Source: Escherichia phage EPFV3-03/2025. From it: a stretch of 64,000 bases of DNA. Made by a program: the position numbers and the translations under genes. A model generated the notes under the pieces. The model made no database searches. It was not told the origin of the DNA and saw nothing but the letters and a program-made list of their open reading frames with translations. Position 1 is the stretch's first letter; each line of letters begins with the position of its first letter. Positions 14,662 through 53,132 of the stretch are shown in pieces. Location: sequence record PV435126.1; one strand, written 5' to 3'.

Positions 14662-15057
14662 TTACTGAAACAGTGCAGATAAATTACCTTCTGGTGGGAA
14701 CTTATCTGCCAAGAACGGAGTCAGAACAGTGGCCTTCTGAAGATCTGGAGTCCACTCGTTGTTCAGAACATCCCAGTAGTACGCAATGTTGCTGTGTGGG
14801 TGCCGCATTACGAACTTTTTCCCTTCGTAGTCAGTTGAAACCTCTACAGAAGAAATAACAACAGAATCTTCAAGAGTTTCTTCATAGAAAGATCCACCCT
14901 CGAATTTCCAACGAGATGCAAGAGCTCCTGCCTTAAACGCTGCAGATAACGGACTGTCGGCAAGAACATACATTTCTTGCACTCTGTCGCTACGATCTTT
15001 GCTTCTTACGTTGTATACAGTATCTGAGCTATACTCAACACGGTATAGACTTACCAT
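14662..15057 (-). CDS. hypothetical protein, paralog family C (131 aa)
   Basis: HPHSNIAYYWDVLNNEWTP resembles HPDSRVKHYWNARTKTWTP in 16860-17258. Confidence 0.55.
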   Translation of the reverse strand: MVSLYRVEYSSDTVYNVRSKDRSDRVQEMYVLADSPLSAAFKAGALASRWKFEGGSFYEETLEDSVVISSVEVSTDYEGKKFVMRHPHSNIAYYWDVLNNEWTPDLQKATVLTPFLADKFPPEGNLSALFQ

Positions 15058-15416
15058 TACCGCACCTCCTCAATAACTTCCACATCTGAACCTACCACAA
15101 ATGCAAAAGGGCAGGTTTCATGAAAGACATCCGGATCGCCGCCAAGCTTGCTAACTATTTCTCCACCACTAATAAACACAAGCTCACCGATATTCATCAG
15201 ATTGCTGAAATAGTATCCATAATGATTAAAGAATGCAGCAGGGTCAGGCAGACTAGTAGCCTCAAGCTCTACATCGGTTGAGATTACTTTCTTATCATAC
15301 CCTCTGGCCTTTTGAGATGCAAGATCTGCAGAATCCTCAGGCGACCGGAGATGCACAGGAATTGTTTCACCAATAAAGCGTACTTTCATATTCTCACCCA
15401 ACAACCATAGCTTCAA
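15057..15416 (-). CDS. small acidic protein, paralog family A
   Basis: LVFISGGEIVSKLGG and C-terminal VEVIEE resemble 17271-17742 and 21168-21401; start probably at internal MKVRF. Confidence 0.5.
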   Translation of the reverse strand: MKLWLLGENMKVRFIGETIPVHLRSPEDSADLASQKARGYDKKVISTDVELEATSLPDPAAFFNHYGYYFSNLMNIGELVFISGGEIVSKLGGDPDVFHETCPFAFVVGSDVEVIEEVR

Positions 15417-15657
15417 AAGGGGTCATAAACGAATAAACAGCATTATCATCTGCTTCAGGAAATGCCCCCAAAGACTTCATGTCTGAGCCCTTGACAAATA
15501 CAAGGTTCTGATCAAAAGCTTCTTGTGGATCAATCCGATACATATTTCGTAGGGTATCACTTACCTCATCATCAAGAGGCGAGTATGCTGTGCACGTTTT
15601 TCCAATCAAGCTTTGAGAATCAGGGTATCCACCTGAAGTTTTAAAATAAACAATCAT
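15394..15657 (-). CDS. small acidic protein, paralog family A
   Basis: LVFVKGSDMKSLGA motif. Confidence 0.5.
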   Translation of the reverse strand: MIVYFKTSGGYPDSQSLIGKTCTAYSPLDDEVSDTLRNMYRIDPQEAFDQNLVFVKGSDMKSLGAFPEADDNAVYSFMTPFEAMVVG

Positions 15658-15745: not shown

Positions 15746-16015
15746 TTACTCCTCTACAACCTCATACACATCCGGAGTTACAATCAACTCTTCTCCGTTG
15801 CCTGGAGCAACAAACACTACCAAACCTTCCGGTGTGTGCTTTTTAGCCATCTCGATGACATCTTCTCGCAGAGCTGGCTCCATCAAATCAAAACCTTCAC
15901 CCAGAGCATCACGAACCACCTTCATGTAGTCCACTGGTTGTGCTTCAACGATCATGCCTTCAACCAGTCCGCAGTTTTTGTCTGCCAGCTCAGTTTTGAA
16001 TAATTTAATTTTCAT
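15746..16015 (-). CDS. small acidic protein, paralog family B
   Basis: MKIKL start; GEGF motif; C-terminal DVYEVVEE. Confidence 0.55.
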   Translation of the reverse strand: MKIKLFKTELADKNCGLVEGMIVEAQPVDYMKVVRDALGEGFDLMEPALREDVIEMAKKHTPEGLVVFVAPGNGEELIVTPDVYEVVEE

Positions 16016-16152
16016 TTAGAGGTCTCCTCAATTATTTGATATTAATAGCCGTAACCTAACACATTAACTACAACTGCGATTGCAAACATAATTTCAAAGC
16101 ATGCAATCTCTACATTTGGGACTAATTTCTTAATCATACCCATTGTAGCACC

Positions 16153-16470
16153 TCAATCCCAAAAGTCAATCTTTACTTTACCTTTTCCCTTACCTTTCTT
16201 TCCACCGCATTTAGCCAACTGGCGTGCTGCAACATCCACCATACGGTCAGTTGCCTCGTAAGCATCGCTACCTTTAGCTTTGGCGATAACTTCTTTCCCA
16301 GAATTGTCAAAAATAAAAGCCATAACTTCCTGGTGATCATTTTCAACTTTTACACTCACACGTGCATAGTTGGCAGATGGGTGCAAACGCTCCAGTTTGG
16401 ACATTTTGTGGGAAATGAAAGACACCATACCTTCAGTGATCTCTACGTTGCCAGTGATTTCAATCTGCAT
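16153..16470 (-). CDS. hpf: ribosome hibernation promoting factor / RaiA-like protein
   Basis: MQIEITGNVEITEG...KLE...VKVE and ...AKGSDAYEA...ARQLAK follow my recollection of bacterial HPF/YfiA (MQLNITGNNVEITEAL...; AEGQDMYAAIDGLIDKLARQL); Lys/Gly-rich tail. Confidence 0.75.
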   Translation of the reverse strand: MQIEITGNVEITEGMVSFISHKMSKLERLHPSANYARVSVKVENDHQEVMAFIFDNSGKEVIAKAKGSDAYEATDRMVDVAARQLAKCGGKKGKGKGKVKIDFWD

Positions 16471-16551
16471 AACGTGCTCCTTTTAAAGAAGAGGGAACCA
16501 AACCCTCTTTGAAAATAATGATACTAAAGATCAAATGTTGTGTCAACAGTT

Positions 16552-16859: not shown

Positions 16860-17258
16860 TCAGTTTAGCTTTTCTTCAACAACCCCATAACTTGGGGCAG
16901 AGTCAAGAGCTTTCTGGTTTAAAAGTGGCGTAGCAGAATCTGCAAACGGTGTCCAAGTTTTTGTTCTGGCATTCCAGTAATGCTTCACTCTAGAATCTGG
17001 ATGCACTATAACAAAAACTTTTTCACTTGTCAACACATTAATTTCTTCCACACCCTTGCTGATAATTTCTCCGTCATATCCTCCGGTCTGGTATCCTTCG
17101 TACCAGGTTCTTGCATAGGCATAGCCAGCCTGCCAGCATGCAGCCTCCTCCGAGGTGGAGACTACGTAGAAGTCTTTCTCAAATTCTGGGATACGCCCTT
17201 GCTTTACGCTCCAAGCTCCGCGAATTTTCATTGTAACTTTGAACAGTTTGTTTTTCAC
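16860..17258 (-). CDS. hypothetical protein, paralog family C (132 aa)
   Basis: Shares YW-x6-WTP region with 14662-15057. Confidence 0.55.
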   Translation of the reverse strand: MKNKLFKVTMKIRGAWSVKQGRIPEFEKDFYVVSTSEEAACWQAGYAYARTWYEGYQTGGYDGEIISKGVEEINVLTSEKVFVIVHPDSRVKHYWNARTKTWTPFADSATPLLNQKALDSAPSYGVVEEKLN

Positions 17259-17270
17259 AACGGTTACCTA

Positions 17271-17525
17271 TTACAGCTCTACAATATCTGCATCTGACCC
17301 TGCCCCAAAGGCATAATAGGACTCTTTCCCGAAATAATATTCAGGTGCACCAGCGGCGATCAGGTCTGATCCTAAGATAAACACCACGTTGTGGCCTACA
17401 TAACTATGATGTTGCCGCACAGGATCATCCCACGGTAACCCTTCAAAGTATACCGCAGGAACGACCTTTCCCTTCAGGAAGGATTGTCCCAAGTAGACGT
17501 TAGAATCAAGAATTTTAACCTTCAT
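17271..17525 (-). CDS. small acidic protein, paralog family A
   Basis: MKVKILDSNVYLGQ...GKVV...ILGSDLIAAGA closely matches 17515-17742. Confidence 0.6.
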   Translation of the reverse strand: MKVKILDSNVYLGQSFLKGKVVPAVYFEGLPWDDPVRQHHSYVGHNVVFILGSDLIAAGAPEYYFGKESYYAFGAGSDADIVEL

Positions 17526-17742
17526 GATCGTCCTCCACTATCTCTACATCCTCACCTAGGGCAAAGTTGTAGGTCCACTGACTGTCAAAGCAGTCCTGAG
17601 ATGCACCAGCGGCAATAAGATCTGCTCCTTTTATTTTTAAAAGGTCAGGGTAATCTTCGTTAGGGACAGCAGTAAACACTTTTCCTACTAAAGGCTCCTG
17701 ACCAATATAGAAGCTTGAATCTAAAACTTTAACTTTCATCAA
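17515..17742 (-). CDS. small acidic protein, paralog family A
   Basis: MKVKVLDSSFYIGQ...GKVF...IKGADLIAAGA; adjacent tandem duplicate of 17271-17525. Confidence 0.6.
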   Translation of the reverse strand: MMKVKVLDSSFYIGQEPLVGKVFTAVPNEDYPDLLKIKGADLIAAGASQDCFDSQWTYNFALGEDVEIVEDDHEG

Positions 17743-20640: not shown

Positions 20641-21171
20641 CTACAGATGGTTGCTTATGGTGTCAAGAAAATTATCCCGTTCTTTCTTGGAGTTTTCACG
20701 GGTGTAGCTGAAAAACATATCTAGAATAACCTTATTGATATATTCCAGCTCCTCTGTGTTCAGGTACTTAGCAGGATCTACAATGACATCCCAAGTCTCA
20801 TACAGACCGCACTCATGATAACCCCAACGCTGCTCAATTGTCAAGCTGAGCGGCAAATCTTTACCGTCACAAACAACCTTCCATCTACAAATGCTGGTAT
20901 CTGGGCACACCTGTGTACGGTATACCTGTACAAAATCCAATCTGAATTTGAGGTACTCGTCATACAATTTAAGCACAAAGCTCTCGATTTGTGGAGACAC
21001 TTTTGCAGCAAACTGTGCGTATTTATACTTGCACTGGATGATCTTTCTGCGTTTTGCAGTTAAATTTTTTGCAGCCAGTTGTTCTTCAGTGTATCTCCAC
21101 CGATCAACAAACGCAACAGGGTCTTTGTCCCCATAAAGGTCTTCCCAGTTAATCAGAAGCATACCTGTCAC
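20641..21171 (-). CDS. hypothetical protein (176 aa)
   Basis: ORF. Confidence 0.5.
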   Translation of the reverse strand: MTGMLLINWEDLYGDKDPVAFVDRWRYTEEQLAAKNLTAKRRKIIQCKYKYAQFAAKVSPQIESFVLKLYDEYLKFRLDFVQVYRTQVCPDTSICRWKVVCDGKDLPLSLTIEQRWGYHECGLYETWDVIVDPAKYLNTEELEYINKVILDMFFSYTRENSKKERDNFLDTISNHL

Positions 21172-21401
21172 TCCTCCACAACTTCAAGACCTTTACCGCC
21201 TCGCTCTGGCAGATTACTTAAAGACAGGTAATACGTATAGTCAGGAGAGATCCTGCCAGACTCTGCACCTGCAGATAGTAAATCTTTTCCCTTAACCATG
21301 ACAACATTATCGTTTGCAGATAGTCGTTTTGCTTCCACAATTTTACCAACGCAGTCAACCAAGGAAGGGTACCCTAAATCTGTAAGAAATTTAACTTTCA
21401 T
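21168..21401 (-). CDS. small acidic protein, paralog family A
   Basis: MKVKFL...GKIV...MVKGKDLLSAGA...LEVVEE. Confidence 0.55.
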   Translation of the reverse strand: MKVKFLTDLGYPSLVDCVGKIVEAKRLSANDNVVMVKGKDLLSAGAESGRISPDYTYYLSLSNLPERGGKGLEVVEE

Positions 21402-52319: not shown

Positions 52320-52394
52320 GCCCTGTTAGCTTAGTGGATAAAGCAGCGGCCTTCTAAGCCGTTGACACTGGTTCGAGTCCAGTACGGGGTGCCA
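52320..52394 (+). tRNA. tRNA-Arg (anticodon TCT)
   Basis: Manual cloverleaf: 7-bp acceptor GCCCTGT/ACGGGGT, 4-bp D-stem, anticodon loop CTTCTAA, T-loop TTCGAGT, CCA encoded. Confidence 0.75.
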
Positions 52395-52398
52395 AATT

Positions 52399-52485
52399 GG
52401 GGAGTTATCCCGTAGAGGTAGCGGTGTAGACTGTAAATCTATTGTCATTGCGACTCGGGTGGTTCGACTCCACCACTCCCCACCA
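52399..52485 (+). tRNA. tRNA-Tyr (anticodon GTA), long variable arm
   Basis: Acceptor GGGGAGT/ACTCCCC, anticodon loop CTGTAAA, T-arm GGTGG-TTCGACT-CCACC, CCA encoded. Confidence 0.7.
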
Positions 52486-52599
52486 AATTTATATTTTTAA
52501 ATGCATAAATCATACAGATAATGACATTGATATTTATCGTCGTTTATACTAGTCACTAACTGCTCGAAAATCAGTGTCATTATCAGTGTAATTTATAAA

Positions 52600-52690
52600 G
52601 GAGGGTAGGGAGCAATGGTGCTCAAGCGGTCTTGAAAACCGTCCCGTTGAGGATGACTCGATGATGGTTCGATTCCATTACTCTCCGCCA
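52600..52690 (+). tRNA. tRNA-Ser (anticodon TGA), long variable arm
   Basis: Acceptor GGAGGGT/ACTCTCC, anticodon stem GCGGT/ACCGT with loop CTTGAAA, T-loop TTCGATT, CCA encoded. Confidence 0.7.
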
Positions 52691-52788
52691 CATTGTTGAC
52701 CTTGTAATTAAGCGAAAGCCGGAAGCAGAACCGGATTATCAAATGTTACAGTCGTCATCGCCGACTAGCCACATGGTCAACATATTGC

Positions 52789-52887
52789 GCTAGGTAAGCC
52801 CTTTGGCAAGGGCGAGGATTTTTAATCCTGAAAATAGACGAGGTAGTCGTTGAATACATAGGTGGTTCGATTCCATCACCTAGCACC
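52789..52887 (+). tRNA. atypical tRNA-like gene (possible anticodon TTT) with about 30-nt insertion before T-arm
   Basis: Perfect 7-bp acceptor GCTAGGT/ACCTAGC, D-arm GCCC-TTTGGCAA-GGGC, T-arm GGTGG-TTCGATT-CCATC, but 4-bp anticodon stem and over-long variable region; CCA not fully encoded. Confidence 0.45.
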
Positions 52888-52892
52888 TTTTT

Positions 52893-52968
52893 GCTGATGT
52901 AGCACAATTGGCAGTGCAATTGATTTGTAATCAATAGGTTGCAGGTTCGAGTCCTGCCATCAGCACCA
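52893..52968 (+). tRNA. tRNA-Thr (anticodon TGT)
   Basis: Acceptor GCTGATG/CATCAGC, D-stem GCAC/GTGC, anticodon stem ATTGA/TCAAT loop TTTGTAA, T-loop TTCGAGT, CCA. Confidence 0.8.
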
Positions 52969-52969
52969 T

Positions 52970-53044
52970 GGCCCTGTAGCTGGAAGGTTCAAGCAAGCGA
53001 CTCATAATCGCCAGACGGTGGTTCAATTCCACCCAGGGCCACCA
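52970..53044 (+). tRNA. tRNA-Met (anticodon CAT; Ile-lysidine type not excluded)
   Basis: Acceptor GGCCCTG/CAGGGCC, anticodon loop CTCATAA, T-arm GGTGG-TTCAATT-CCACC, CCA. Confidence 0.7.
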
Positions 53045-53055
53045 AATAATAAATA

Positions 53056-53132
53056 CTCCGCGTAGCTCAGCTTGGTAGAGCGCCTGATTTGGGATCAGGA
53101 GGTCGAGTGTTCGAATCACTCCGTGGAGACCA
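53056..53132 (+). tRNA. tRNA-Pro (anticodon TGG)
   Basis: C1-G72 acceptor CTCCGCG/CGTGGAG, D-arm GCTC-AGCTTGGTA-GAGC, anticodon stem CCTGA/TCAGG loop TTTGGGA, T-loop TTCGAAT, CCA. Confidence 0.8.

Follow-up and report, generated by a model that had tools for sequence, protein, structure and literature searches.

A conserved homolog of ribosome hibernation promoting factor in rV5-like coliphages: family assignment, contact residues and possible role

Introduction

Homologs of the bacterial ribosome hibernation promoting factor (HPF) are known from the Vequintavirus (rV5-like) coliphages, where the gene has been annotated since rV5 (accession DQ832317, ORF 144). Mizuno et al. (2019, Nat Commun 10:752, PMC6375957) named rV5, FV3, FFH2, JES-2013 and typing phage 14 as HPF-encoding phages, and Mathieu et al. 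(2020, Nature Communications, PMC6969025) noted hpf in five new rV5-like phages. Mizuno et al. also tested the cloned rV5 gene by expression in E. coli. Peptides of the phage protein were found in the crude extract and none in 70S or 100S ribosomes prepared in high-stringency salt, and expression had no discernible effect on 100S formation. As possible causes the authors gave an inadequate growth phase, a loss of binding, or stripping by the salt. They proposed an anti-dimerisation idea, and an increase in 100S was not seen. In the literature after 2019 we found no functional study of an rV5-type HPF.

The bacterial relatives of these proteins are better described. Contacts of enterobacterial and Pseudomonas HPF have been reported in a cryo-EM preprint (bioRxiv 10.1101/2025.10.07.680626), which lists K26, Q29, E60, K80, R83, K87, K89 and K91 for HPF. 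In the related factor RaiA, a longer tail heads toward the site of RMF and blocks dimerisation. RMF rises in the dormancy which is induced by the DRT2 defence.

Here we describe the HPF gene in a window of 64,000 nucleotides from Escherichia phage EPFV3-03/2025 (PV435126.1). An earlier note on this stretch had implied that the gene was a novelty. This is not the case, as it has been annotated since rV5 and treated in two Nature Communications papers: it is the conserved HPF gene of rV5-like coliphages, already known and published. Our interest is therefore in what its sequence, relatives, predicted structure and surroundings suggest about its role.

Results

The gene and its product

The HPF gene in the window is a true phage-borne copy of the bacterial hibernation factor, and we call its product phage HPF. 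The features are the following:

16153..16470, minus strand: coding sequence of the HPF/YfiA family, stop codon included, an ATG-to-TGA open reading frame of 105 amino acids
Residues 1-88 of the product: S30AE domain
Residues 89-105 of the product: Lys/Gly-rich tail, disordered according to the AlphaFold2 prediction

The product of this minus-strand reading frame is MQIEITGNVEITEGMVSFISHKMSKLERLHPSANYARVSVKVENDHQEVMAFIFDNSGKEVIAKAKGSDAYEATDRMVDVAARQLAKCGGKKGKGKGKVKIDFWD. The earlier note gave no strand for the gene; read on the plus strand, 16153-16470 has no start codon and is absent from the list of open reading frames. The sequence motifs described in that note can all be found in the product, namely MQ-xx-ITG-xx-EIT at residues 1-12, G-x-D-x-Y-x-A at residues 67-73, ARQL at residues 82-85 and the Lys/Gly tail at residues 88-100.

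Family membership and predicted fold

The claimed homology to the HPF/RaiA family is well founded, as PF02482, TIGR00741, the sequence matches in the PDB and the predicted fold all agree. The Pfam family PF02482 (Ribosomal_S30AE) matches with 48.3 bits and an E-value of 1.8e-12 (gathering score 23.7), covering residues 3-88 of the phage protein and positions 1-83 of the 88 in the model. The NCBIfam model TIGR00741 for the HPF/YfiA family is also passed, with 45.9 bits and a cut-off of 40.9. PF02482 is the sole Pfam match in the 105 residues, which is the single-domain layout of short HPFs of the ~95-residue type. Because a second domain is absent, phage HPF is not a long HPF.

The best PDB sequence matches are the E. 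coli HPF entries 2rql, 4v8h and 6h4n with E-values of about 1e-11; the top match among the solved structures, 2rql/4v8h, covers residues 1-89 with an E-value of 6e-12. Using E. coli reference sequences verified against the PDB, we find 43% identity to HPF over 88 residues as opposed to 25% to RaiA. Neither of the more specific equivalog models is passed: phage HPF scores 55.8 bits with the HPF equivalog NF007780 (cut-off 125) and 17.6 bits with the RaiA equivalog NF007654 (cut-off 158). Judged by sequence, phage HPF is closer to short HPF than to RaiA.

Public annotations of the gene read 'sigma 54 modulation factor', 'ribosome hibernation promoting factor' or 'RaiA'. The RefSeq label 'RaiA' is a generic family name and no evidence of RaiA function. 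In several records (OR0625xx, MT8840xx) the HPF gene is mislabelled as 'ATP-dependent protease La Type I', and in the MN8506xx records the name 'sigma 54 modulation factor' has been put on an unrelated downstream gene of 89 amino acids (15746-16015 in the window).

An AlphaFold2 model was built from a four-sequence alignment. The pLDDT is about 90 over residues 1-88 and below 50 over residues 90-105, and the tail is therefore predicted to be disordered. The predicted elements are strand 2-7, helix 13-29, strands 33-43, 46-55 and 60-67, and helix 70-89. Superposed on solved HPFs, the model gives an rmsd of 1.1-1.2 Å. All of the top 33 matches in a Foldseek search of the PDB are HPF, RaiA or pY chains, the best being V. 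cholerae HPF 4hei (TM 0.80/0.90, rmsd 1.1 Å); ribosome-bound E. coli HPF (6h4n_x) superposes with an rmsd of 1.2 Å.

Distribution and alleles

The 5 kb around the gene are 95-96% identical to more than 100 Vequintavirus genomes, and 18 records named 'UNVERIFIED Campylobacter phage' are Vequintavirus genomes ~95% identical to the window. A tblastn search found the gene in 118 records, 117 of which are phage records. The remaining match, labelled Salmonella, is a bacterial contig of 691 kb (AGRM01000002) misfiled among the phage records. About 117 of the 120 matching Vequintavirus records carry the HPF gene, including orthologs of rV5 gp139 in FFH2, Murica and the BASEL Vequintavirus phages. At the protein level the identity is 100% to phage FV3, 98% to rV5 gp139/ORF144 and 95-100% over the ~117 phage records. 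Searches for a wider spread among viruses yielded little more: a word-indexed protein search returned close relatives only, and both scans of IMG/VR matched just two Vequintavirus contigs.

When 16153-16470 of the window is compared with the loci L011, L014 and L010, the following allelic variation is seen. At the C-terminus the window, FV3, HMD-6 and VB-EcoM-WM have FWD, rV5 has FGE and other phages have FRE, and phage Murica is a natural truncation in which the last 7 tail residues are missing. There is also a one-codon indel, GNVEIT versus GNNVEIT, of which the longer form matches E. coli HPF.

A search for a phage-encoded RMF partner was negative, with no tblastn match in 50,697 phage records to an approximate E. 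coli RMF query.

Selection and origin

Nei-Gojobori comparison with 10 rV5-type alleles gave 7-27.5 synonymous and 2-10.5 non-synonymous differences. The resulting omega (dN/dS) is about 0.02-0.07 when the whole gene is taken and 0-0.04 in the core domain. The variation is concentrated at the very end of the protein, where the alleles have WD, GE or RE and Murica is truncated. This is strong purifying selection, and the gene clearly serves a function in the phage.

When 1.84 billion cluster representatives were scanned exhaustively with HMMER, only 22 matches at E<1e-3 were returned. Of the clear cellular relatives, short HPFs of gammaproteobacteria are nearest, with about 36-47 bits. One further match, P0006 (1160 aa), was judged spurious as it aligns only through repeated short stretches (query residues 35-81). 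The matches also include P0004, a phage variant of 103 amino acids which is 64% identical to the window's HPF and has the tail ...KYSKSKGIDKRTAKWDY. It lies in the syntenic position in uncultured rV5-like contigs of 124-137 kb. The loci L004-L007, Logan/ENA metagenome contigs of 16-126 kb, likewise show an uncultured rV5-like lineage that carries P0004, and this lineage is absent from the GenBank phage collection that we searched.

To place the divergence on a scale we compared scores with E. coli HPF. V. cholerae HPF (4hei) reaches 113 bits and 9sda 84 bits, these being the two different HPFs that follow E. coli HPF itself in the PDB list, while phage HPF reaches ~49 bits (48.9). On these sequence scores phage HPF is further from the host HPF than other gammaproteobacterial HPFs are, which means that either the capture is old or divergence was fast afterwards. 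The source of the capture is a gammaproteobacterial short-HPF lineage. Mizuno et al. (PMC6375957) suggested a 'relatively recent' host-to-phage transfer, but this fits poorly with how isolated the phage clade is in the HMMER scan and with an identity of 43% to E. coli HPF.

Ribosome-contact residues and the C-terminal tail

We compared the contact residues in an alignment of phage HPF with 20 bacterial homologs. K22 and K25 (E. coli K23 and K26), R28, E60, R83, K87 and K91 are kept; of the contacts listed in the preprint, the equivalents of K26, R/Q29, E60, R83, K87 and K91 are thus present. The changed positions are R17V, D/E51M, T53F, H55F, M70A, K80V and K89G. If only the seven basic 16S rRNA contacts of alpha-1 and alpha-2 are scored (K23, K26, K80, R83, K87, K89 and K91 in E. 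coli numbering), five are kept (K22, K25, R83, K87 and K91 in the phage protein), with K80 replaced by Val and K89 by Gly. These two are also missing from the five strictly conserved basic residues of alpha-2. Position 51, which is Met in phage HPF, is acidic in 18 of the 20 bacterial homologs.

Taken singly, most of the phage substitutions also occur in bacterial HPFs: three short HPFs have F55, and three homologs have V or T at position 80. Their combination is unique to the phage clade and mostly common to the P0004 lineage: V16, A70 and non-basic residues at 80 and 89 occur in both phage lineages, across which R83, K87, K22 and K25 are invariant. We conclude that the contact surface of phage HPF is partly remodelled.

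The tail of phage HPF exceeds that of E. coli HPF by 10 residues and falls 8 residues short of that of RaiA. Its net charge is +4 compared with +2 in E. coli HPF, the charge of the core being -2 and -3, respectively. The tail is basic and Gly-rich, and its sequence is unrelated to the RaiA tail, whose end is acidic (-3).

Expression signals

Upstream of the gene the following signals can be recognised:

16518..16546, minus strand: predicted sigma-70-type promoter, TTGACA-17 nt-TATCAT, with 11 of 12 consensus matches
16489..16509, minus strand: stem-loop of 7 bp, AAGAGGG-N7-CCCTCTT, close to the transcript's predicted 5' end
16477..16482, minus strand: Shine-Dalgarno sequence AAGGAG, read from the sequence, 6 nt before the ATG

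The predicted promoter ends 47 nt upstream of the ATG and coincides with 'P144' as annotated in rV5 (NC_011041). Its -35 block AAACTGTTGACACA shows no change (alignment A1), not even in the 64%-identity lineage, which has the same -35 box and a shorter leader. A ribosome binding site is annotated at the matching place in phage Murica (NC_041871). The stem of the stem-loop is kept in rV5 and one IMG/VR contig. We do not consider it a regulatory hairpin of the 5'-UTR, because its minimum free energy of -11.3 kcal/mol corresponds to a z-score of only -0.38 relative to shuffled sequences and it is missing in the divergent lineage.

Kropinski et al. (2013, PMC3606486) placed the gene in transcription unit 82-163, together with genes of replication and nucleotide metabolism, and found only sigma-70-type promoters in that unit. 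Taken together with the conserved, consensus-matching promoter, this makes it likely that phage HPF is expressed by E. coli RNA polymerase, early or throughout infection.

Genomic neighbourhood

The earlier note had placed the gene inside an array of paralogs. Two small paralog families do flank it, as a duplicated A-B cassette:

14662-15057, minus strand: paralog family B (phrog_7379)
15057-15416, minus strand: paralog family A (phrog_5009/13661)
15394-15657, minus strand: weak phrog_5009 link to family A
16860-17258, minus strand: paralog family B (phrog_7379)
17271-17525, minus strand: paralog family A (phrog_5009/13661)
17515-17742, minus strand: paralog family A (phrog_5009/13661)
21168-21401, minus strand: paralog family A (phrog_5009/13661)

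The HPF gene itself belongs to neither family, as an all-against-all BLASTP of the 77 minus-strand open reading frames gave no link to them. The further proposal of a translation-takeover module is not supported: the gene has its own promoter, and its ten neighbours show no Pfam domain and no PHROG with a known function. Specifically, we looked for translation-related genes among these neighbours, and the search yielded no Pfam matches and only PHROGs without an assigned function.

Directly downstream, at 16042-16143 on the minus strand, lies a hydrophobic reading frame of 33 amino acids, MGMIKKLVPNVEIACFEIMFAIAVVVNVLGYGY, whose start is 9 nt past the HPF stop codon. GAGG is found upstream of its ATG, it is an annotated CDS in rV5 and others, and it is conserved in rV5-type phages (phrog_15151, E-value 5e-26). 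In the 64%-identity lineage an 84-nt gap leaves no room for it.

About 36 kb from the HPF gene, the plus strand carries a cluster of seven tRNA genes at 52320-53132 (Arg-TCT, Tyr, Ser-TGA, Thr, Met, Pro). One call there, at 52789-52887, is an odd tRNA of 99 nt with the four-base anticodon 'atcc'; possible readings are a pseudo-tRNA, a tRNA with an intron and a tRNA resembling a frameshift suppressor.

Discussion

In this study we aimed to narrow down what the HPF homolog of rV5-like phages may do. As a discovery our analysis adds little, since more than 100 public phage genomes already have the gene annotated, papers of 2019 and 2020 drew attention to it, and it has been tested once. New here are the dN/dS estimates, the gene's own conserved predicted promoter, the extent of its divergence from host HPF, the remodelled contacts and the lack of an RMF match in phages. 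Together these narrow the question to a protein that is HPF-like and not RaiA-like, goes back to an ancient capture or has diverged fast, and has a longer basic tail.

From the family assignment it is a reasonable inference that phage HPF would bind the 30S decoding region and silence ribosomes, as the earlier note proposed. With a probability of roughly 55%, we think that it is an early protein which acts on the HPF/RaiA site of idle ribosomes and modulates their hibernation. The protein would dock in the pocket of host HPF and RaiA, that is, in the 30S channel through which mRNA and tRNA pass, at the A and P sites of vacant ribosomes, by means of the retained basic residues K22, K25, R28, R83, K87 and K91. 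It would thereby compete with host HPF and RaiA for this pocket, and the longer basic tail might, judging by its length and charge alone, compete with RMF too. As a weak or reversible occupant similar to RaiA, it could keep idle ribosomes protected and monomeric. Such protected 70S ribosomes would be ready for phage mRNAs in hosts that are slow-growing, stressed or arrested by a defence. A modulator of hibernation seems to us a better reading than a shut-off toxin, because the contacts are changed, the tail is longer and basic, no phage RMF was found and 100S did not rise.

There are several points against this reading. The only direct test was negative, in that rV5 HPF was not seen in high-salt 70S or 100S ribosomes and 100S was unchanged (PMC6375957); its authors did not regard this result as decisive. 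The substitutions K80V, K89G, M70A and Met at position 51 affect the contact surface, and the cut-offs of both equivalog models were failed. Furthermore, the promoter is a consensus match only.

A stronger version of a hibernation modulator is conceivable but less likely than not. Here phage HPF would be a remodelled mimic that opposes host hibernation: a weak, reversible occupant of the pocket whose Lys/Gly tail excludes RMF, so that in stationary, stressed or defence-arrested cells the ribosomes stay as 70S monomers that phage translation can re-use. If this were true, it would be the first viral counter-measure against ribosome hibernation.

It is more doubtful that the HPF fold was kept while its target changed, so that phage HPF now acts, away from the ribosome, on a different RNA, on a protein of the host or on a small molecule. 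The negative co-purification with ribosomes (PMC6375957) would agree with such an exaptation, but the high-salt wash is a plausible trivial cause of that result according to the authors themselves. The changes on the contact face that both phage lineages have in common (V16, A70, non-basic 80 and 89) point in the same direction; however, most of the substitutions occur singly in bona fide bacterial HPFs, the core charge resembles that of E. coli HPF, and R83, K87, K22 and K25 are invariant in both lineages. The protein is also isolated, with its 22 matches at E<1e-3 in 1.84 billion and a nearest cellular relative at ~47 bits, and its gene is surrounded by small uncharacterised genes, in the kind of cluster where anti-defence genes are often found. 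Phages have repurposed this class of fold before, as the precedent of Acb4 shows (PMC11722364), but phage HPF is not a member of the Acb4 family. The search for an Acb4-type nucleotide sponge gave no PF13876 match at E<=10 and no Acb4 chain in the Foldseek output. We found no rV5-like phage in the text supplementary files of PMC11722364, and the screen of 57 phages in that study is therefore uninformative here.

The earlier note had preferred a weapon for host shut-off and takeover, in which phage HPF silences host ribosomes at the 30S decoding centre and forms a module with the neighbouring paralogs. Members of the HPF family do block both the A site and the P site, and they inhibit translation, and the gene lies among small early-type genes with a promoter that matches E. 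coli RNA polymerase. We nevertheless regard this as unlikely. HPF-type factors bind vacant ribosomes whatever the source of the mRNA, so silencing would strike phage mRNAs as well. Moderate expression in E. coli left the ribosome profiles unaltered and the protein did not co-purify with ribosomes (PMC6375957). In addition, the neighbours have no recognisable domain or link to translation, and the gene with its own promoter is not embedded in a paralog operon.

Least probable of all is a canonical short HPF that aids host RMF in maturing 90S into 100S dimers, which would store ribosomes or protect them from nucleases late in infection or in starved hosts: phage HPF is indeed closest to short HPFs and the host supplies RMF, which is induced in dormancy including that caused by defence, but its 55.8 bits are far under the HPF equivalog cut-off of 125 and the longer basic tail points to the region where the long tail of RaiA antagonises RMF.

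A hibernation-factor homolog that essentially all members of a coliphage genus of therapeutic relevance carry is a good target for experimental studies. If it were established whether ribosomes are silenced, protected or re-mobilised by the protein, it would be clear whether phages manipulate hibernation. The answer matters for how slow-growing or dormant bacteria are infected and for defences that are based on dormancy.

Comparison with known systems

The closest described systems are rV5 gp139/ORF144 and its Vequintavirus orthologs, which have the same gene in the same position with the same promoter and neighbours, so that the differences are at the level of alleles only. Vequintavirus phages of the BASEL collection amplify significantly slower than other coliphages, and 7 of 12 lay under the assay's detection limit (PMC12013923).

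Phage HPF has in common with the short HPF of E. coli (YhbH; 2RQL, 4V8H, 6H4N) the equivalents of K23, K26, R83, K87 and K91. It differs from it in carrying K80V, K89G, D51M, T53F, H55F and M70A, and in that its expression had no effect on 100S (PMC6375957). E. coli hpf sits in the rpoN operon, whereas the phage gene has a predicted phage promoter. With E. coli RaiA/YfiA (protein Y; 1N3G, 4V8I) it shares the fold and, presumably, the pocket. Like RaiA it has a C-terminal extension beyond the length of a short HPF, but the identity is only 25%, the equivalog score is 17.6 bits versus 158, and the tail is 8 residues shorter and basic.

The anti-CBASS sponge Acb4 (PF13876; gp1.3 of Bacillus phage SPO1) is likewise a small protein whose phage gene stands among small early genes, and its fold is reported to resemble dsRBDs and V. 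cholerae HPF 4HEI (PMC11722364). Acb4 is a tetramer, whereas phage HPF shows no sign of oligomerisation. Finally, the jumbo phages Cronobacter GAP32 and Xanthomonas XaC1 also carry a gene with an S30AE domain in a large myovirus genome. GAP32 clusters elsewhere in the HPF tree (PMC6375957), the HPF of XaC1 is 34% identical to E. coli HPF, and neither protein was retrieved by the rV5-type protein at E<=1. The HPF genes of GAP32 and XaC1 were acquired independently of the rV5-type gene.
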